DNA of 64,000 nucleotides from an uncultured delta proteobacterium (GTDB lineage: Bacteria; Desulfobacterota; Desulfuromonadia; Desulfuromonadales; JACZKF01), in the NCBI GenBank assembly GCA_963816395.1, contig CAWFKQ010000005.1, positions 334,156-398,155 on the forward strand, read 5' to 3'. The translations under genes were made by a program, and so were the position numbers. Position 1 is the first letter of the stretch, and every line of letters starts with the position of its first letter. The notes beneath the pieces were generated by a model. It was not told the DNA's origin. It saw nothing but the letters and a program-made list of their open reading frames with translations, and made no database searches. This document shows positions 1,722-45,851 of the stretch, in pieces.

Positions 1722-1829
1722 TTTCGCGGTACGCGGTTCGCGGGACGCGAAGGTCAAAAGCGGCAATCAAAGGCGCGGGACGCGAAAGGGTTTTGACTTC
1801 CTCGTACCGCGTCCCTCGTACCGCGCCCC
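1722..1829. repeat. GC-rich heptad-periodic palindromic intergenic element (GGGACGCG...AAGGTCAAA / TTTGAC...CGCGTCCC family), fills the cysD-cysNC spacer
   Basis: tttcgcg gtacgcg gttcgcg ggacgcg aaggtcaaaag ... gggacgcgaaagggttttgacttc ctcgtac cgcgtcc ctcgtac cgcgccc; period-7 arms that are roughly reverse-complementary. Shares its core with 2766, 4623, 8515 and 10271. Confidence 0.8.
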
Positions 1830-1835
1830 TGCTTT

Positions 1836-2765: not shown

Positions 2766-2833
2766 CCGGGACGCGGTACGCGGTGCGCGGTACGCGGAAA
2801 GCCTTTGAACTTCGCATCCCGCGTCCGCCGCGG
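2766..2833. repeat. GC-rich heptad-periodic palindromic intergenic element, fills the permease-cysD spacer
   Basis: ccgggacgcg gtacgcg gtgcgcg gtacgcg gaaagcctttgaacttcgcatcccgcgtccgccgcgg; GGGACGCG on the left and CGCGTCC on the right. Confidence 0.75.
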
Positions 2834-2840
2834 TTTTCCC

Positions 2841-4613
2841 CTAAAACTTCCACACCAACGGGATCACTACCAGCGAAACTACCATAAAAAGGATGTTCAG
2901 AGGAATACCGATGCGCAGAAAATCCCGGAAGCGGTAGCCGCCGGGACCGTAGACCATGAGATTGGTCTGGTAGCCGATGGGGGTGGAGAAGCTGGCCGAG
3001 GCGGCGATCGCCACCGCCACGGCGAAGGGTTTGGGATCGAGGCCGGCCTGCGCGGCGGCGGCCACCGCGATGGGGAAGACCAGGGCGGCGGCGGCGTTGT
3101 TGGTGATGACCTCGGTCAGGATGGTGGTGACCAGATAGACGGCCGCCAGCAGCCCGACCGGCCCCACCCCGCGCACGATCTCGATGAGATGCCCGGCGAT
3201 GAAGGCCGCGGCGCCCGTTTTCTCCAGCGCCCGGCTGATACCGAGGGAAGCGGCGATGACGATGAGCACATTCAGCTCGAGCGAGCGCCGCGCTTCAACC
3301 ACGGTCACCGTGCGGGTGAAGAGGAGCACCAGCGCCGCCAGGATGGCGGCTTCCAGGATATCCAGGACGCCCGTCGCCGCCAGCCCCACCATGAGGAGGA
3401 TCGAGAGCAGGGAGATCACGGATTTCCGGCGATTGACCAGCGGCACGTCGCTGACCTTGGAGATCATGTAGAAATCGCGCGACCGCCCCCAGCGCTTGAG
3501 GAAATCGTCCCCGGCCAGAAGCAGGAGGGTGTCGCCCGGATGCAGCTGCAGCTGGCCGATCGGCGTCCGCAGCCGCTCGCCATGCCGGTGCACCGCCAGC
3601 ACGACGGCATCGTACTGGCCCCGGAAGTTGCCCTCCTTGATGGTTTTTCCCAGCATGGGGAAAGAGCGCGAGACGACCGCTTCGATGACCCGTCCCTTGC
3701 CGCTGCGGCGCAGCTCCCGGTAGAAGTGGCGGCCGTGGCCGGGTTCCAGGCCCGGGATCTTCTGCAGCTGGAGGATCGCTTCCACCAGCCCGCTGAACAC
3801 CAGGCGGTCGCCGGCATGCAGGGGATCGGTCGGCCGGACCGGGATCAGGCTGTCGCCGTTGCGCACGATCTCGCCCAGAAACAACTTGTCGAGATTACGC
3901 AGGCCGGCCGCCTCGACCGTTTTCCCCGCCAGCGGGCTGCCGTCGGGAACCCGCATCTCGATCAGGTATTCGCGGCCGCTCTCTACCAGCGTTTCCGCCA
4001 GGTCTTTCCTGGCCGGCAGCAGCCGGTGCCCCCAGAAGAGCAGGTACAGGGTCCCCGCCACGGCGCAGGGCAGACCGACGTAGGCCAGCTCGAACATGCT
4101 GAAGGAAAGCCCGAGGGGCTGCAACAGGCCGTTCACGACCAGATTGGTGGAGGTGCCGATCAGGGTGCAGACACCGCCGAAAATGGAGGCATACGACAGC
4201 GGGATGAGGAATTTGGAGGGGGAGAACCCCTTCTTCAGCGCCCACTCGCGGAGGGTCGGGGTGAACATGGCGACGATCGGGGTGTTGTTGAGGAAGGCGG
4301 ACAGGCCAATGACGGGAGCCATCATCTTCAGCAGGCTGCGGCGCAACCCCCGGCCGTCGCCCATCGCCCGGTTGGCCAGCATCTCCAGGATTCCGGAGGA
4401 CTGGGCGGCATAGGCAACGATAAAGAGGATGCCGACCGTCAGCATCCCCTGGTTGGAGAATCCGCCCAGCGCCTCCTGCGGCTGGAGGATGCCGCCGATC
4501 ATCAGAATCCCCAGGGCGGCGAAGACGATGACATCGGGCGCCAGGATCTCGGCCACCAGGGCGGCGAGCATCAGGCCGACGATGATCAGGGTGAAGATTG
4601 CATCGAATGACAT
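2841..4613 (-). CDS. SLC13/DASS-type anion permease with two central TrkA-C-like domains (possible sulfate/anion uptake, by context)
   Basis: Intact 590-aa ORF. Multi-TM halves (..[15 protein letters not shown].., ..[21 protein letters not shown]..) flank soluble segments (..[23 protein letters not shown].., ..[23 protein letters not shown]..). Lies adjacent to cysD/cysNC. Confidence 0.75.
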
Positions 4614-4622
4614 GGCAAAAAA

Positions 4623-4832
4623 CCCGGGACGCGGCTTGCGGTTCGCGGTTCGCGGAAAGCTTAAGGGCCGGGACGCGGCTTGCGGTTCGCGGTTCGCGGA
4701 AAGCTTAAGGGCCGGGACGCGGCTTGCGGTTCGCGGTTCGCGGAAAGCTTAAGGGCCGGGAGGCGGTTTGCGGTTTGCGGTTCGCGGAAAGCTTTTGACC
4801 TTCGCGGCCCGCGTCCCGCGCACCGCGTTCCG
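4623..4832. repeat. Tandem array: three identical 44-bp units plus a divergent terminal unit that closes into the family hairpin
   Basis: Unit gggacgcggcttgcggttcgcggttcgcggaaagcttaagggcc starts at 4626, 4670 and 4714 (all identical). A fourth unit at 4758 diverges and ends ..gaaagcttttgaccttcgcggcccgcgtcccgcg. Each unit is itself 6 heptads + 2 nt. Units abut with no spacers. Confidence 0.9.
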
Positions 4833-4840
4833 ATTTTTAT

Positions 4841-7377: not shown

Positions 7378-8506
7378 GCGGCGCCTCCACCGAACAGCCG
7401 GAAGCGCACCAGCGCTTCGCGGAACGCCTCCTCGATGACCGGCCGCTGCGCCGGCGGGCGCCTCCGCCAGCAGACGCCGGGCGCGCCGGACGAAAACGCC
7501 GCGCACCGTCTGTTCCTGCTCCAGGCGGGCGGCGAAGGCACTGTCGAAAAGCCGCGTGCGGTCCTCCAGTTCCAGATGGAAGAAGGCATCGCGGCAGCGG
7601 GCGCAGCAGGGCAGACACATCGAGCGGCGCCTCGACGATGCCGGTCAGCGCGAGGCGCAGCAGCAGGTCGGGACGCCCTTTGGCGACAATCGCCTCGGCG
7701 ACCCGCCCGGCATCCTCGCAGCCGGAGAGATCAAGGCTCTCGGCCGCCAGTTCCTGGCTGTTGACCGTCACTTTTTCCACTGTCGCCCGCCCCGCCGCCA
7801 GGGTGACCAGGGCGGCGTAGCGGGGGCCGTTCTCACCGAAGCGCTTCCCCTCCGGCGAGCCGGGATAGCAGGCCCAGACCCGCCCGGCCTCCTCCAGGAG
7901 CTCGAAACCGTGGTAATGCCCCAGGGCCACGTAGTCCAGTCCCCATTCGCGCAGGGTGGCGAGGGAGAAAGGCAGATCCTTCTTTCGGTATTCCCACTCC
8001 GGACTTCCCTGGCGGGAGCCGTGCAGCAGGCCGATATGGATCCCTTCCGGGGCGCGCCGGGCCATGCCGGCCAGGGCGTCGGCAGAGGCGAAGGAGCGGT
8101 AGGCGAAGCCGTAGAGGAACACCTGCTCTCCCCCCACCGTGAGCATCGCCGGGGCCTCGACGGTCGGCGCGGCGAGCACCACCGCCCCCGGGAAATCGGC
8201 CTGCCGATACACCGAATCGGCACTCACCAGATTGTCATGGGTGCCGGGGAGAAGCACCGGCACAATTCCCCGGTCGGCCAGGCGTTTGAGGCCGGCCTGC
8301 ACCCGACCGACCAGGGCGGGTTCGGGGCGGGGGTTGTCGAACAGATCGCCGGCGACCAGAAACAATTGGCACTCGCTCTTGATCGCCAGAGTCAGCAGGC
8401 GCTCGAAGGTCTTGAGGAAGGCGTCCCGACGCGCCCCTTCCTGCCCGTCAAGAGCAGGGAAAGGGGCACCCAGGTGCAGATCGGCGGTATGCAGAAATCG
8501 GATCAT
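7374..8506 (-). CDS. sbcD: SbcD-like Mre11-family nuclease subunit, two apparent frameshifts in the C-terminal part
   Basis: MIRFLHTADLHLGAP..VAGDLFD..LPGTHDN..GHYH phosphoesterase motifs. The tail continues in two other frames (..RCRDAFFHLELEDRTRLF.. then ..RPVIEEAFREALVRFRLFGGGAA); changes near 7615 and 7455. Confidence 0.85.
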
Positions 8507-8514
8507 AAATCACT

Positions 8515-8601
8515 CGGTACGCGGTACGCGAAAGGCGTAAAACCAGGGACGCGGTACGCGAAGGTCAAAGATTTTCGCGAACCGCAAACCGCGTCCCGCG
8601 C
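8515..8601. repeat. GC-rich heptad-periodic palindromic intergenic element, fills the methylase-sbcD spacer
   Basis: cggtacgcggtacgcgaaaggcgtaaaaccagggacgcggtacgcgaaggtcaaagattttcgcgaaccgcaaaccgcgtcccgcgc; GGGACGCGGTACGCG pairs imperfectly with CGCGAACCGCAAACCGCGTCCC. Confidence 0.8.
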
Positions 8602-8611
8602 TTTATCTGCT

Positions 8612-9376
8612 TCATTCCTGAAACTGCCAGATGGTCTCCCGGCGGAAGTCCCACCAGCTGGCGTCGATGCGGGTAGACAGGGTTTCGCCGGCGATCACCA
8701 GGGTGAGGGCCGGCCGTTTCTTCGGGCCGCCGAGTTCGAAGAAATCCCGGCCGCCGGCTTTCTCCACGATATCGTCGAGGGTGCCGGTCAACACCTCCTG
8801 CCCGGGCAGGCAGAGCCGGTGCAGGATGGCGATCGGCACGCTGCGGCCATAGCCGGCGCGCAGTTCCGCCACCAGTTCCGGCAGCGGGAGATCGTTCATG
8901 TAAAGAAGCAGCGTCACCCCGGGCGCCGCCAGCTCGCGCAGGGCCGGGGCACCGGGCTCTTCCGCCAGCAGGCGCGGCGAGGCGATGATCGCCCGGTTGC
9001 AGGCCCCGGGAAGGTCGAGGGTTTTCTTCAGCCAGGCCGCGGCGGCATTGGCCGTCCCCACCCCGGGGACCGCCACCGCCCGCTCCCCCAGGGGATCGAT
9101 CAGCGCCTGAAAAGGGGAATAGAAGGTGAGGTCGCCGGGGACCAGGAAAGCCACGTCCCCCTCCCGCAGCCGCGCCTCCACCTGCTCCAGCAGCTCCGCG
9201 AAATAGAAATCGAAGGGGACCAGGATTTCCTTGCCGGCGAGCAGGGCGGCGAAGGTCGTCTCGTAGGGCGTAGGGGCGAAGACCGTCCGGCAGCCGGCCA
9301 GCAGCCGGGCCCCCTTGAGGGTCAGGAGGTCGGGGTCGCCGGGTCCGGCGCCGATGAAGTAGACGCGGCTACTCAT
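8612..9376 (-). CDS. Tetrapyrrole (corrin/porphyrin) methylase superfamily protein, substrate not assignable
   Basis: From ATG 9376: MSSRVYFIGAGPGDPDLLTLKGARLL.. (GxGxGD SAM motif); CbiF/CobM-like length and pattern; intact. Confidence 0.7.
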   Translation of the reverse strand: MSSRVYFIGAGPGDPDLLTLKGARLLAGCRTVFAPTPYETTFAALLAGKEILVPFDFYFAELLEQVEARLREGDVAFLVPGDLTFYSPFQALIDPLGERAVAVPGVGTANAAAAWLKKTLDLPGACNRAIIASPRLLAEEPGAPALRELAAPGVTLLLYMNDLPLPELVAELRAGYGRSVPIAILHRLCLPGQEVLTGTLDDIVEKAGGRDFFELGGPKKRPALTLVIAGETLSTRIDASWWDFRRETIWQFQE

Positions 9377-9391
9377 CCGCACTCCACAACC

Positions 9392-9468
9392 AGCTGCAAG
9401 CTGCAAGCTGCAAGCTAAGAGCTTAAGTTTGAATTTTTTTTCTAGCTTGCAGCTTGCAGCTTGTAGCT
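9392..9468. repeat. Long hairpin built from (AGCTGCA)n heptads: 25-bp arms, 24/25 complementary, 27-nt A/T-rich loop
   Basis: Left arm 9392..9416 agctgcaagctgcaagctgcaagct. Right arm 9444..9468 agcttgcagcttgcagcttgtagct. Loop aagagcttaagtttgaatttttttttc-like, containing CTTAAG. Confidence 0.9.
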
Positions 9469-10204
9469 TCTTTTCGCATCCAGATGAGAAACTCCCTGTT
9501 CCCTTTCGGGCCGAGGATGGGGCTTTCGGTGACTCCCAGCACCGCGCAGCCGAGTTCCGCGGCCAGCTCCCGGACCTTGTTCACCACCCGGGCGTGCTTC
9601 TCCGCTCTCCCGCACCACGCCCCCCTTGCCGACTTCCCCGCGTCCCACCTCGAACTGCGGCTTGATCAGGGCGAGCACCTCGGCATCGGCGGCCAGCAGC
9701 GCCAGGGTCGGCGGCAGGACCTTGTCGAGGGAGATGAACGAGGCGTCGATCACCGCCAGGTCCGGACGTTCGGGGAGACGGTCGGCCGTGAGGTCGCGGA
9801 TGTTGGTGCGCTCCAGGTTGACCACCCGCGGGTCCTCGCGCAGCTTCCAGGCGAGTTGACCGTAGCCGACGTCGACCGCATAGACCCGCGCCGCCCCCCG
9901 CTGCAGCAGACAATCGGTAAAACCGCCGGTGGAGGCGCCGACGTCGATGGCAACCCGCCCGCCTACCGCCACCGCGAATTCGTCCAGTGCCCGCTCCAGC
10001 TTGAGGCCGCCGCGCGACACGTAAGCGGATATCCTCTCCCTTCAGGCGCAGAGCACAGTCGGCCTCGACCTGCGCCCCCGCCTTGTCCACCGCGTGCTCG
10101 CCGACCACCACCTTGCCGGCCAGAATCAGGGCGCGCGCCCGTTCCCGGGACTGAGCCAGTCCGCGTTCCACCAGCAGCTTGTCGAGGCGTTCTTTTCTGG
10201 GCAT
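9423..10204 (-). CDS. tlyA: TlyA-family rRNA 2-prime-O-methyltransferase (S4 + FtsJ domains), two apparent frameshifts
   Basis: [34 protein letters not shown] (S4) .. [30 protein letters not shown] (SAM site) .. [15 protein letters not shown]. Pieces lie in three frames (changes near 10025 and 9610). In the corrected frame the stop is TAA 9423..9425, inside the hairpin loop. Confidence 0.85.
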
Positions 10205-10270
10205 GGGCGGGGACAGGAAAGCGCAAGGCGGTTGAAATTCCATCTTTCAGAAGCGGCCCAAGAGTAACAC

Positions 10271-10377
10271 AGGGGGAAGCGGGGAGCAAAGGGGAAACCG
10301 AGGGGCGAGGGGCGAGGGACGCGGTACGCGAAAATATTTTGACCTTCGCGCACCGCGCACCGCGCACCGCGTCCCGG
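10271..10377. repeat. GC-rich heptad-periodic palindromic intergenic element, fills the methyltransferase-tlyA spacer
   Basis: gaggggc gaggggc gagggac gcggtac gcgaaaatattttgaccttcg cgcaccg cgcaccg cgcaccg cgtcccgg; same GGGACGCGGTACGCG / TTTTGACCTTCGCG / CGCGTCCC core. Confidence 0.8.
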
Positions 10378-10382
10378 ACCTT

Positions 10383-11092
10383 CTATTCCGCCTCCAGCGC
10401 GATCCCCACCGCCGTGTAGGGATAGCCGTGGAAACGGCGCATCTGCGGGTGAGGTGCGGCCAGTCGGCAGTGAGGTCGAGGGGACCGGTGAGGCGGAAAC
10501 CGGGGGCGGCCAGGACGATGCGGCGCAGCTGATCTTCGTCGAAAACGTTCCAGTCGACGCGGAAGGGTTCGCCCGGCCCCTGGTACCACATCTCCTCCCC
10601 CGCCTGCCGGCAGAAATCGGTGGTCAGCAGGAGACGACCGCCGGGGCGCAGGACCCGGTGCAGCTCCGCCAGCGCCAGCGGCATCCGCTCCCAGGGCAGA
10701 TGCTCGAGGACCGAGATGCAGAAGACGGCGGCAAAACGGCCGGAGGCGAAAGGCAGGGCGGCCAGATCGCCGCGGGCGTAATTGACCCGCACCCCGTGCA
10801 GGCGGTCGAGCCGTCCGGGAAGGTCCAGGTCGCAGGCGCTCACCGGGCAGCCGCAAGCGGCCAGATAGACCGGGAAGATGGAGGCGCCGCAGCCGGCATC
10901 GAGCACCTGGTCGCCAGGGCTGAGCGCCGCCTGCTCCAGTGCCCAGGGGTACTCCCAGCGTTTGCTGGGGTGCAGGTAGGAGACCGTTTCCCGCGCCGCC
11001 ATCGCGTCCATGGCCGCCGCGGTCCGCCGAAAAGGGGGAGACTCCAGCTCTGCCAGGTCCAGCACCCGACTGGGGGCCCTGTTTTCCCTCAT
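10383..11092 (-). CDS. Class I SAM-dependent methyltransferase, one apparent frameshift near the C-terminus; no stop separates it from the upstream GT9 frame
   Basis: MRENRAPSRVLDLAELE..VLDAGCGASIFPVYLAACG (motif I)..VFCISVLEHLP..LRPGGRLLLTTD. The last ~20 aa (..QMRRFHGYPYTAVGIALEAE) are in the 10383..11249 frame (change near 10455). Confidence 0.75.
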
Positions 11093-14273: not shown

Positions 14274-14290
14274 CGCGTGTCCTATGAGAT

Positions 14291-14379
14291 CAGTTATCAG
14301 CTGTCAGTTATCAGCTGCAAGCTAGAGCCACGAGCAGGTTCAAGGTTCAAGCTGCGAACTGCTAGCTGTGAGCTGATGG
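14291..14379. repeat. Heptad-periodic imperfect hairpin (CAGTTAT/CAGCTGT heptads), fills the phosphatase-methyltransferase spacer
   Basis: cagttat cagctgt cagttat cagctgc aagctag ... gctgcga actgcta gctgtga gctgatg gctag; arms partly complementary (atcagctgtcag vs ctgtgagctgat). Confidence 0.65.
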
Positions 14380-14992
14380 CTAGGCTTGGATCGGCAACCG
14401 GTCGCCGGTGTGGTTAAGGCAGAGCAGCCGCGGGCCGCTGTCGCGGATATCGAGGATGCTGACGGAGGCCAGACCGATCTCGAAGCGCAGCATCAGGTCC
14501 AGGGGGAAGCCGGCGTAATGGGCAATGGCCGTTTTGATCGGATCACCGTGGCTGAACAGCGCCAGGATGGACTTGGGGAATTCCCGGCGCATTGCTTCGA
14601 TCTCCGCCACCATGCGCGCCTGCACCTCGACCATCAGCTCGCCGCCGGGAATACGGGTGCCGCTGCGGAAGGTGTTGAACTGCCGCCAGCGGGGAATTTC
14701 CCCCAGCTCCTCGAAGGACATGCCGGCCCAGTCACCGAAGTCGACCTCGTGCAGCCCCTCACGGATCTCCACCTGCAGCCCGTGCCGCCGAGCCAGCGGC
14801 GCAGCGGTCTCCCGCGTCCGCTCCAGGGGACTGCTGAAAATAGCCGGCCAATGGCACCTCGGCGAGCCGCTCGGCAAGCCGTTCGGCCTGTTCGCTGCCC
14901 TGCTGGTTCAGGTGGATGCCGGCCGTCCGGCCGACGATCGTCCGGCCGACGGCATCGTTATGCCCATGGCGGATCAACAGGAAGAGGGGCAT
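14380..14992 (-). CDS. Histidine phosphatase family protein (phosphoglycerate-mutase-like), one apparent frameshift
   Basis: ATG 14992: MPLFLLIRHGHNDAV (RHG motif) .. then after a change near 14848 ..IFSSPLERTRETAAPLA..LFSHGDPIK.. Confidence 0.8.
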
Positions 14993-20196: not shown

Positions 20197-20275
20197 CAGT
20201 TAGAGCTTTCAGTTATCAGTTAGCAGTTTTCAGTTTTTTCAGCCTTCCACTGATAGCTGCTAACTGAAAACTTGT
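20197..20275. repeat. Heptad-periodic imperfect hairpin (CAGTTAT/CAGTTAG/CAGTTTT heptads), fills the arnA-arnD spacer
   Basis: ccagtta gagcttt cagttat cagttag cagtttt cagtttt ttcagccttccactgatagctgctaactgaaaac; tcagttagcag pairs with ctgctaactga. Confidence 0.7.
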
Positions 20276-23243: not shown

Positions 23244-23261
23244 ATGGGCGTCAATCCTGTA

Positions 23262-23326
23262 GGGGCGCCGCTTGCTGCGCCCGATTTGCCGGGGATAATC
23301 CACCAGGGCGCAGCAAGCGGCGCCCC
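23262..23326. repeat. Perfect 21-bp inverted repeat (hairpin) with a 23-nt loop in the arnB-arnC spacer
   Basis: Left arm 23262..23282 ggggcgccgcttgctgcgccc. Right arm 23306..23326 gggcgcagcaagcggcgcccc, its exact reverse complement. Confidence 0.9.
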
Positions 23327-23354
23327 AACGTGGTATGTCGAAGGCTCATGCACC

Positions 23355-34707: not shown

Positions 34708-35063
34708 TGGTGGAGGTGGCGGGAATCGAACCCGCGTCCGAACGTCTTTCACGTAAGGCTTCTACATGCTTAGTCTGTATATTGGATTTAACCCGCCGGA
34801 GCTCCCACAGACAGGATATCCGACGGGCGATTCTGCTTTATTTCGCCCCGGCACCGCAGACCCTTGCCGGGACTAGCCCACTAAATTGACGTCTCAGGCC
34901 CTACGCGGGCGATAGAACATGAGACGTGACGGCAATTAAGCCGCCAGTGCGTACTGAACGTCGTTGTCGGCGTTTGTGTTTGTGCCAGTTTTTTAACGAG
35001 GCCAACTGGCGTCCCCGGCATGCCACCTTCGCTTCCGACCTCCGTCGAAACCAGGTCACCCCC
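34708..35063 (-). ncRNA. ssrA: tmRNA (SsrA)
   Basis: Minus strand: 5-prime GGGGGUGACCUGGUUUCGACGG.., tag reading frame GCC GAC AAC GAC GUU CAG UAC GCA CUG GCG GCU UAA = ADNDVQYALAA* (34936..34971), 3-prime tRNA-like end ..GGACGCGGGUUCGAUUCCCGCCACCUCCACCA. smpB is adjacent. Confidence 0.95.
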
Positions 35064-40908: not shown

Positions 40909-41339
40909 CTCTCTCGCTCCACGCCGGCGCCCGAAAACAGAAAAGCCTTCCAGGAGCGAGTCCGAAAGGCCGTGACCAGAAGGAGATTTCTCCACCCCTT
41001 GCCGGTGCCGCTATTGCCTTCCGTCCCGGTCCCATCGGATCCAGGCGGTATTGTTTCGTTCAGTAAAACCTGCGGCTGTTCGCTCCGGTACGGGTTCCGG
41101 GCTGACCGCAACAAAATCCAAAAAAACGTTTTATCCTATACCATATGCAGCAAAAGTTGTCCAGAAAAATTCGCGACCTTCATCCCCCACCGACAGGCCG
41201 AGAACGTCAGGTGCTTCGGGCTTTTGCGGGGGGGCCGAAGATCGCAGACGGTCCCTGGGAAAACGCTGCGGGTTGGCAGTTGCATTACCGGCAGATTGCG
41301 CTAATTATATGAATGTGGGTTTGCTAACCGGAGGTGTTT

Positions 41340-45574: not shown

Positions 45575-45815
45575 GACATAAATAAAAAACTCCCGCCCCA
45601 TCCAGGGGCGAGAGCAGAAGCTTCGCGGTACCACCCTGATTCACCCGCCGCCTTTCTCACGCTGCAGCGGGCCTTGTTGTCCTTTACGCAGACTCACGGC
45701 ACCGGCTAAGCTGCCACTGGCAGACTCACCGATGCGGCTCCGAGGCGAGTTCGATTCCTTCCTGTACCGGCTTGCAGCGACCGCCGACTCTCTGCGACAG
45801 GGGGGAGAATCTACT
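45575..45815 (-). promoter_or_regulatory. T-box leader (tRNA-sensing riboswitch) with intrinsic terminator, upstream of leuA; probable Leu specificity
   Basis: Minus strand: AGAGA box gcAGAGAGtcgg (about 45787..45796); T-box sequence aaucAGGGUGGUACCGCGaag (core 45624..45637); terminator CUCGCCCC-UGGA-UGGGGCGGGAG + UUUUUUAUUU (45581..45613). Candidate specifier GAA-CUC-G. Confidence 0.85.
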
Positions 45816-45851
45816 ACTCCTCTTCAACGCCTTTCCTTGTTATGTCTGCCT

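Follow-up and report, generated by a model that had tools for sequence, protein, structure and literature searches.

A paired heptad-repeat hairpin at the junction of tlyA and a methylase gene in an uncultured delta proteobacterium of the Desulfuromonadales

The tlyA junction and its hairpin

A stretch of 64,000 nucleotides from the genome of an uncultured delta proteobacterium of the order Desulfuromonadales (contig CAWFKQ010000005.1, positions 334,156 to 398,155; hereafter the window, whose positions serve as coordinates throughout) carries a 77-bp hairpin between tlyA and a gene of the tetrapyrrole methylase family. We label this hairpin, which spans 9392-9468, E5. The genes around it run on the minus strand. 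The translation of tlyA crosses the first arm of E5 and stops at a TAA (9425-9423) inside its centre, and the ATG of the methylase gene (9376-9374) lies 15 nt past the second arm and 46 nt past the tlyA stop, with a GGAG at 9386-9383 ahead of it. In the direction of transcription, the features of the junction are these:

9423..10204, minus strand: tlyA, encoding a TlyA-family rRNA 2'-O-methyltransferase, its last 15 codons (9426-9470) without conservation
9469..9488, unstranded: partner of a predicted outer helix, in conserved tlyA coding sequence (..FLIWMRKE)
9444..9468, minus strand: 5' arm of E5 in the mRNA, AGCUACA AGCUGCA AGCUGCA AGCU (3.6 heptads), encoding the tlyA tail ..(E)ATSCKLQA
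9417..9443, minus strand: centre or loop of E5, with T8, CTTAAG and the tlyA stop, probably related to the centre of a GC-rich element family described below (GAAAGCTT..TTGAMCTTC)
9423..9425, minus strand: TAA stop of tlyA, within the E5 centre (open reading frame (ORF) 9423..9587, minus strand)
9392..9416, minus strand: 3' arm of E5 in the mRNA, (AGCUUGC)3 AGCU, outside the translation of tlyA
9372..9391, unstranded: outer flank, with weak complementarity to 9469-9488
8612..9376, minus strand: downstream gene of the tetrapyrrole methylase family, intact, 254 aa, 69% identical to the relatives' gene with Pfam TP_methylase (PF00590)

The left arm of the hairpin (9392-9416, AGCTGCAAGCTGCAAGCTGCAAGCT) and its right arm (9444-9468, AGCTTGCAGCTTGCAGCTTGTAGCT) are complementary at 24 of 25 positions, the sole mismatch being G9396 against T9464 (C.A in the minus-strand mRNA). 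They stand 27 nt apart around an A/T-rich centre (9417-9443, AAGAGCTTAAGTTTGAATTTTTTTTCT) that contains CTTAAG (9422-9427) and a run of eight T (9434-9441; A8 in the mRNA). Both arms are arrays of the heptad AGCTGCA, for which two repeat finders, Tandem Repeats Finder among them, returned a period of 7; the left array (9392-9416) comprises 3.6 units at 100% identity and the right array (9444-9469) 3.7 units at 94%. An 18-mer taken from the arm, AGCTGCAAGCTGCAAGCT, matches the window seven times at up to three mismatches, against 0.04 matches expected, and five of the seven fall within E5. The G+C content of the hairpin is 43%, compared with 63% for the window.

Folding agreed with the repeat structure. 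The minus-strand RNA from 9490 to 9370 has a predicted energy of -59.9 kcal/mol against -35.8 +/- 3.1 kcal/mol for shuffled sequences (z = -7.7), and none of 200 shuffles folded as well; the 104-nt core of E5 by itself reached -46.5 kcal/mol (z = -4.5). E5 is a real heptad-arm hairpin. An earlier note on this DNA had described it as such, and the arms, their complementarity, the 27-nt A/T-rich loop with its T8 and CTTAAG, and the 15 nt between the left arm and the next start codon all agree with the sequence, the heptads being confirmed by repeat finding and the hairpin by folding. When the flanks are included, the whole inverted repeat extends to 46 nt at 80% (CTCATC / GATGAG), and the predicted fold contains an outer 8-bp helix that joins the downstream AUG region to the tlyA codons for LIWM. 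This outer helix may be a chance pairing.

The end of tlyA has to be read with the quality of the assembly in mind. The coding sequence of tlyA is spread over three frames by two +1 shifts (near 10025 and at 9604-9638), and a tblastn search with a relative's proteins placed TlyA residues 2-58, 60-199 and 188-246 in frames -1, -2 and -3. The sbcD gene (7383-8506, minus strand) is likewise split over three frames, so that tlyA and sbcD together hold at least four frameshifts in ~2.9 kb, with the gene between them intact. These frameshifts are probably indel errors of the assembly, the alternative being real pseudogenes. As the assembly is probably prone to indels, the T8 run may be longer or shorter than it reads, which leaves the exact tail and stop of tlyA insecure; the earlier proposal that arm and centre encode the last ~15 codons of tlyA and its stop (9423..9425) stands with this qualification. 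The T8 run sits four codons ahead of the tlyA stop. With one A fewer in the A8 of the mRNA, tlyA would be in frame with the methylase gene through the whole of E5 and a fusion ORF would result, and another tlyA frame terminates earlier, at the TAG in GCTAGA. SbcD is a hairpin nuclease, and its possible inactivity in a palindrome-rich genome is worth attention.

The ancestral junction in relatives

We searched 5.8 billion sequences with a 259-aa reconstruction of TlyA. The closest proteins, from Desulfuromonas, Trichloromonas and other Desulfuromonadales, were at most 85% identical and mostly 245-248 aa long; their matches covered only 93-95% of the query and left its last ~15 residues unaligned. 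Among 30 aligned Desulfuromonadales orthologues (73-84% identity), most terminate 1-4 residues past the conserved FLIHLRK, and none of the 30 carries the 15-residue tail. The earlier note had raised the question of whether TlyA normally ends before the hairpin, and in most of these orthologues it does; the conserved tail that the note had named as grounds for refutation was absent from all 30. A metagenome scan for TlyA added one close relative among the matches listed (L125, 84%). Two long-tailed TlyA homologues (P0039 and P0046) were considered as further hairpin cases and rejected, since their tails derive from a different downstream gene.

The junction itself is tight in relatives. In five syntenic loci (L123, L124, L125, L129 and L137) the methylase start overlaps the tlyA stop with no spacer, in the forms ..CATGA.., ..CGTGA.. 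or ..TCATGA.. (L125 reads GACGCATGAACC). When the 77 nt of 9392-9468 were removed in silico, a TGA of tlyA came to overlap the methylase ATG (ATGA), as in the relatives, a restoration of frame that is consistent with the gain of a discrete 77-nt segment. Taken together, the unconserved tail, the ATGA overlap of the relatives and the overlap restored by excision indicate, at the level of sequence comparison, that the tail is not ancestral and that E5 is a lineage-specific gain, by insertion or in-place expansion, at an ancestrally overlapping junction. A relative at 79% identity (L121/L122) has a different palindrome, CCCCCCTTTCTTAAAGGGGGG plus CCCCCTTTGAGAAAGAGGG, at the same tlyA/methylase junction (L121 3750-3840, L122 2910-3000), and there too the TlyA tail is altered (GNSGAEFKVPL). 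The presence of different palindromes in the window and in this relative suggests that the junction tolerates small palindromic insertions repeatedly.

A family of heptad elements in the window

E5 has company. The window holds 14 tandem arrays of period 7, compared with 0-4 for periods 5, 6 and 8-12; elsewhere we counted 10 period-7 arrays in 389 kb of other organisms' tlyA loci and one in 21 kb from a relative of ~88% identity. Within the 64 kb analysed, the arrays form about eight elements, E1-E8, situated among co-directional minus-strand genes. The GC-rich elements (E1, E2, E3, E4 and E6) have (CGCGGNN)n arms, and the A/T-richer ones (E5, E7 and E8) have (MAGYTNN)n arms. The siblings of E5, all listed as unstranded, are as follows:

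1723..1830: E1, a composite of two GC-rich heptad hairpin units
2767..2829: E2, a GC-rich heptad hairpin with centre GGAAAGCCTTTGAACTTC, the closest to the E5 centre
4624..4832: E3, GC-rich, a 44-nt unit (arm plus centre) repeated 3.9 times and then one opposite arm
8515..8605: E4, a GC-rich hairpin with GGGACGC/GGTACGC arms and centre GAAGGTCAAAG, filling the methylase-sbcD spacer
10299..10373: E6, upstream of tlyA, another heptad hairpin of the GC-rich type
14288..14386: E7, with arms that mix TCAGTTA, TCAGCTG and CAAGCTA heptads, including AGCTGCA
20197..20272: E8, with (CAGTTAN)n / (NTAACTG)n arms, containing TAACTGA units

The elements sit at the boundaries of genes. For six of them (E2-E5, E7 and E8), no more than 14 nt separate the stop codon of the preceding gene from the element, which in E5 and E7 itself contains that stop, and the next start codon follows 6-23 nt beyond. 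E7 overlaps the stop codon of its upstream gene (14382), with the next ATG 14 nt downstream, and E8 begins 8 nt after an upstream stop and ends 6 nt before the next ATG. The preceding gene could not be followed to its end at E1 and E6, each of which has a candidate start 9-13 nt after it.

Some of these loci have peculiarities of their own. The 44-nt unit of E3 consists of a heptad arm and the centre GGAAAGCTTAAGGG, with 97% identity among its repeats, and has the form of a tandemly amplified half-element. In relatives L121 and L123 a U32 peptidase gene separates the methylase gene from sbcD; the window is without it, and the corresponding junction (8507-8611) is filled by E4. At 23259-23329, in another gene junction, lies a GC-rich hairpin free of heptads, which starts GTAGGGGCGCC, has 24-nt arms that are 96% complementary, and looks like a repetitive extragenic palindrome (REP).

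According to the earlier note, E5 was unrelated in sequence to the GC-rich family but resembled it in architecture and in filling an intra-operon spacer. Both resemblances hold; the claim of unrelated sequence was not supported. The centre of the GC-rich elements has the consensus CGCG-GAAAGCTT-TTGACCTTC-CGCG, with E2 reading GGAAAGCC-TTTGAACTTC, and the E5 centre, AAGAGCTTAAG-TTTGAA-TTTTTTTTC, aligns with the family centre GAAAGCTT-TTGA(C/A)CTTC. A pattern picked after the sequences had been inspected, TCAAA-N0-7-GCTNTT, occurs only three times on the two strands of the window, in the centres of E2, E3 and E5. Furthermore, the array of E7 (14288-14386) mixes AGCTGCA with AGTTATC and AGCTGTC units and thereby links the E5 unit to those of E8. 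E5 is therefore probably related to the GC-rich family, and the alignments identify the centre as the conserved part of the elements, the arms being variable.

The siblings fold with z between -1.4 and -4.6. Pairing in E7, E3 and the outer part of E6 is confined to the 5-nt core of each heptad, with the variable bases in regular internal loops (2x2 or 3x3); stretches in which such loops recur every 7 nt lie at 4745-4840, 10290-10385 and 14274-14390. In these predicted structures it is the core and the 7-nt period that are kept, not full pairing. E5 alone pairs almost perfectly, which suggests that it is young or was homogenised recently.

The same heptad and arm polarity in other genomes

The heptad of E5 is not confined to its lineage. 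An exact scan for AGCTGCAAGCTGCAAGCT, with one genome per species, found at least 120 loci; those listed, among which the locus of the window does not figure, are mainly from Pseudomonas, Stutzerimonas, Halomonas, Alcanivorax and Bacteroidota. Of 119 loci, 41 qualify as hairpins with (AAGCNNN)n arms on a simple stem score, and inside some of these lies a further stem, short and GC-rich and accompanied by A- and T-tracts, in the manner of a two-way terminator. Of further copies, for which the earlier note had proposed a search, related ones exist in the window and, as same-heptad hairpins, in other genomes. At other loci the array is one-sided and may exceed 20 units. Three long (AAGCTGC)n arrays of this sort, ranging from 10 units to more than 20, lie at L005 862-984, L071 3251-3310 and L079 4998-5078, in Alcanivorax, Halomonas and an uncultured gammaproteobacterium; that of L071, at least, adjoins a gene start. 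Closer to the window in descent, Pelobacter sp. UBA6812 (L067), of the same order, has a one-sided array of nine CAGCTNN heptads at 3994-4056. A 432-aa gene, whose product presumably resembles O-acetylhomoserine sulfhydrylase, takes its stop codon from this array, which also fills the spacer ahead of a 156-aa ORF.

The order of the arms is invariant. With strict cores, both types of array occur together in 29 loci, and in all 26 of the non-overlapping cases the order is 5'-(AAGCNNN)n...(GCTTNNN)n-3', never the reverse; these include loci L041, L063, L080 and L028, and the taxa include Pseudomonas, Halomonas and Bacteroidota. E5 has the same polarity, and the other elements of the window obey an analogous rule. 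Analogous pairs can also be discerned as (+)/(-) entries among 39 of the Gmet_H4xx repeats of Geobacter metallireducens and in the convergent pairs of Xanthomonas (PMC4692102), both discussed below. The motif GGTCAAA / TTTGACC was not enriched beside the heptad arrays of other taxa (0.083 vs 0.080 per kb), and the conserved centre is therefore specific to the lineage of the window.

We discarded an additional test, of whether the foreign arrays lie inside a long ORF, since heptad arrays and DNA of high G+C are without stop codons. Two tlyA-bearing metagenome contigs (L157, 4368-4436 and 4856-4885; L174, 2387-2410) carry arrays of a different heptad, (GAATGCG)n, with complementary (TCCGCAT)n ~450 nt away.

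Comparison with known systems

Geobacter metallireducens and the organism of the window share a broad lineage, the Desulfuromonadales/Geobacter group. Two families of paired heptanucleotide repeats were described in G. metallireducens by Aklujkar et al. 2009 (PMC2700814): the class 3 sites Gmet_I301-308, with consensus MTYCTGA, and the Gmet_H4xx repeats, (GGGACCG)4 + GGAAAAC (PMC2700814). Those authors suggested, without testing, that the paired repeats act as regulatory RNA or bind IHF/HU (PMC2700814). As in the window, the arrays lie on each strand, in and between genes and in many copies, with 4-5 heptads per array and ~40-115 nt between arrays in G. metallireducens. The GC-rich family of the window, (GGGACGC/GGTACGC)n + GGAAAGC, closely resembles Gmet_H4xx, and a GGAAA(A/G)C tail follows the GC-rich arrays in the Gmet supplementary alignments, comparable to GGAAAGC in the window. 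E7 and E8 have the CTGA core of the class 3 sites. Unlike the Gmet repeats, E5 is built of an AAGCTGC/AGCTGCA unit, forms a near-perfect 25-bp palindrome, overlaps the end of a coding sequence and provides its stop codon.

Similar repeats are known farther afield. In Xanthomonas, Rehm et al. 2015 counted 70-75 inverted pairs of convergent GGGAATC arrays per genome, 89-93% of them intergenic, mostly between co-directional ORFs and near one ORF (PMC4692102). They share with E5 the heptameric arrays and their convergent orientation on opposite strands; they differ from it in a G-rich unit, studied for G-quadruplex formation, in belonging to a different phylum-level lineage, and in that no overlap with coding sequence was reported. 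MacGregor 2015 described TAACTGA heptamer direct repeats in Beggiatoaceae, cyanobacteria and Bacteroidetes, the arrays of which end a few nt before start codons, some overlapping the end of the upstream ORF (PMC4679880). E8, with its TAACTGA units 6 nt before a start codon, resembles them. The TAACTGA repeats are nearly all direct, with one inverted in 170, and their unit is unlike AGCTGCA. According to a survey as it is relayed in the same paper, heptanucleotides are the most abundant long simple repeats in most of the prokaryotic genomes surveyed, and slippage on a 7-nt polymerase contact was proposed there (via PMC4679880).

Placed beside these systems, E5 has at least three units in each array and a complementary array on the other strand within ~100 nt, the hallmarks of a paired heptameric repeat, and within the window its family comprises several copies, mostly between co-directional ORFs and near an ORF end. 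By inspection, the AAGCTGC unit fits none of MTYCTGA, GGACCGG and GGGAATC. None of the papers covered by a literature search contained the E5 sequence. Judged by its sequence, E5 belongs to the known kind of paired heptamer repeats, with a heptad unit not described before.

In enterobacteria, REPs, the bacterial interspersed mosaic elements (BIMEs) that they form and enterobacterial repetitive intergenic consensus (ERIC) sequences are transcribed palindromes in intra-operon spacers, and their hairpins can stabilise the upstream mRNA or be cleaved. REPs share one fixed consensus, which has a GTAG/CTAC head, and move by means of REP-associated tyrosine transposases (RAYT; IS200/IS605-like). Unlike REPs, the elements of the window have variable heptad-array arms and a conserved centre, and GTAG is present in E5 once (9463-9466), only through its single variant heptad. 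By analogy, elements of the REP/BIME type are plausibly the best working analogue of the hairpin.

Other classes of element gave no match. A search of E5 against Rfam 15 at E <= 10 returned only sub-threshold look-alikes of microRNA precursors, at no more than 28.6 bits against thresholds of 50-160, and there was no Rfam match at the hairpins of 18 loci from other genomes. Across the whole window, the only Rfam matches at gathering score were a tmRNA (34708-35063), a T-box leader (45601-45836) and a pan motif (41017-41103), on the minus strand. Integron attC sites were dropped by inspection, as E5 is flanked by housekeeping genes that are syntenic in relatives, and GTTRRRY/RYYYAAC cores are lacking.

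Origin and possible roles of the hairpin

The comparisons of sequence establish E5 as a member of a multi-copy family and as the source of the tail and stop of tlyA. How it came to do so, and with what consequences, is a matter of weighing alternatives, and we consider it probable that E5 is a selfish or neutral heptad-repeat insertion with incidental RNA effects. It would be one copy of a lineage-specific set of paired heptamer palindromes, each made of two convergent 7-nt arrays around a short centre, and would have been inserted, or have grown in place, at a tlyA/methylase junction that was formerly a 4-nt ATGA overlap. With the gain of E5, tlyA would read through the first arm, end at the TAA of the centre, and acquire its unconserved 15-residue tail. 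The arrays may arise and stay uniform through 7-nt replication slippage and arm-to-arm copying, which would make E5 simple-repeat DNA of a selfish or neutral kind and not a purpose-built regulator.

Incidental effects could follow nonetheless. E5 is presumably transcribed within the operon, where its near-perfect 25-bp RNA duplex would be a plausible RNase III substrate and a barrier to exonucleases and decay. The ATGA coupling that was lost may have been replaced by a hairpin-dependent coupling: a ribosome terminating at the UAA of the loop would have opened the 5' arm, and so would free the 3' arm, the GGAG and the AUG. The predicted helix between the LIWM codons and the AUG region would strengthen such coupling, though it is possibly fortuitous.

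Several observations weigh against this account. No empty-site allele was found in a close relative of the same species, the relatives examined being at most ~85% identical. As regards a miniature inverted-repeat transposable element, which would be flanked by a target-site duplication, E5 is missing from those relatives and its excision restores the overlap; no such duplication is visible, however, and the sequences that flank the element, ..AAAAGA on one side and GGTTGT.. on the other, contain no direct repeat. The frame restored by excision has a one-in-three chance by frame alone and depends on the length of the T8 run, insertion and gradual expansion both fit the relatives at hand, and the boundaries of the gained segment are provisional. 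Relative L207 (88% protein identity) has a 233-nt heptad-free spacer where the window has E8, so that heptad elements do not always occupy ancestrally tight junctions. Several GC-rich members keep core and period without pairing at the variable positions, which fits repeated binding sites better than RNA structure, and the strict polarity of the arms (26/26) is unpredicted by simple slippage. Finally, every effect of E5 at the RNA level is one that we infer.

The most serious alternative, somewhat unlikely in our estimate, is a selected intercistronic RNA element, by which RNase III processing, exonuclease protection or translational coupling would fix how much TlyA is made relative to the downstream enzyme. 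The very stable, nearly perfect stem, the tlyA stop in the loop with the Shine-Dalgarno sequence and AUG 5-15 nt beyond the 3' arm, the pairing of the AUG region in the outer helix, and the placement of family members in co-directional gene junctions, wherever the neighbouring genes could be placed, would suit such a role. Yet the syntenic relatives examined are all without the element and have a simple ATGA overlap instead, the siblings vary in arm sequence and stability (z -1.4 to -4.6), and the outer 8-bp helix is possibly due to chance. An intrinsic (Rho-independent) terminator or attenuator ahead of the methylase gene is a highly improbable reading of this strong intergenic hairpin, even if same-heptad hairpins of Pseudomonas often enclose a GC-rich stem with A-/T-tracts. 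The stem leads, on the transcribed strand, into GGUUGUGGAGUGCGG and not into a U-tract, the T8 lies within the loop and on the other strand, and there is no room for a promoter ahead of the next gene. A scan of 8300-10600 found no terminator-like and no promoter-like sites, and E5 itself departs from a terminator in its loop of 20-27 nt (vs 3-8) and its 3' flank, GGUUGUGGAG. We regard as very improbable a hypervariable switch, in which gain or loss of 7-nt units or slippage in A8 would alter the frame in which tlyA ends, to give TAG, TAA or a fusion with the methylase. The heptad arrays are without a stop codon in any frame, the frames of the centre behave as this model states, the methylase frame can be extended backwards across the hairpin without a stop (ORF 8612..9406), and heptanucleotide repeats are known as phase-variation tracts in other bacteria; but each arm has just 3.6 units, the hairpin partner would resist one-sided change, and the TlyA core is unaffected in any frame.

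The conserved centre with rewritten arms, the invariant polarity and the homing to stop/start junctions could together reflect a distinct, actively generated class of element, as opposed to passive products of slippage, produced across phyla by a polarity-specific mechanism such as an enzyme, snap-back synthesis, or an RNA- or single-stranded-DNA-binding protein that reads heptads; we think this rather unlikely. Action at the DNA level, with the two arrays as tandem, head-to-head sites at which a nucleoid or regulatory protein binds, as in the IHF/HU proposal published for the G. metallireducens repeats (PMC2700814), or with a cruciform or other non-B DNA, seems decidedly unlikely. It would accord with the siblings that conserve the 5-nt core and 7-nt period while two variable bases are left unpaired, and with the strict polarity of the 26/26 hairpins and of the window elements. 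No binding protein is known, however; the differing cores found in one genome (CGCGG, CAGYT and AAGCT) would need several proteins or very loose specificity; and array sites alone do not require the near-perfect palindrome of E5. Lastly, an assembly with at least four frameshifts in ~2.9 kb raises the question of an assembly or sequencing artefact. This is hardly credible for the hairpin itself, since about eight related elements stand in the window, the same architecture recurs in finished genomes and at no fewer than 120 independent genome loci, and fold-back artefacts do not yield 77-nt loop-bearing hairpins placed between genes.

Significance

Paired hairpin-forming heptad repeats have been noted before, in Geobacter and Xanthomonas. 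For the annotation of genomes, E5 carries a warning: gene ends beside such repeats, especially in indel-prone assemblies, may carry spurious or recently acquired tails. For the origin of the repeats it offers handles in the conserved centre with its variable arms, the invariant polarity, and the AAGCTGC hairpins of distant phyla. For the biology of the operon it is a clean natural experiment. E5 rewrites the TlyA C-terminus and its stop and separates two formerly overlapping genes, and the ancestral ATGA state is known from relatives; the effects that the hairpin may have on mRNA processing and translational coupling are therefore directly testable.

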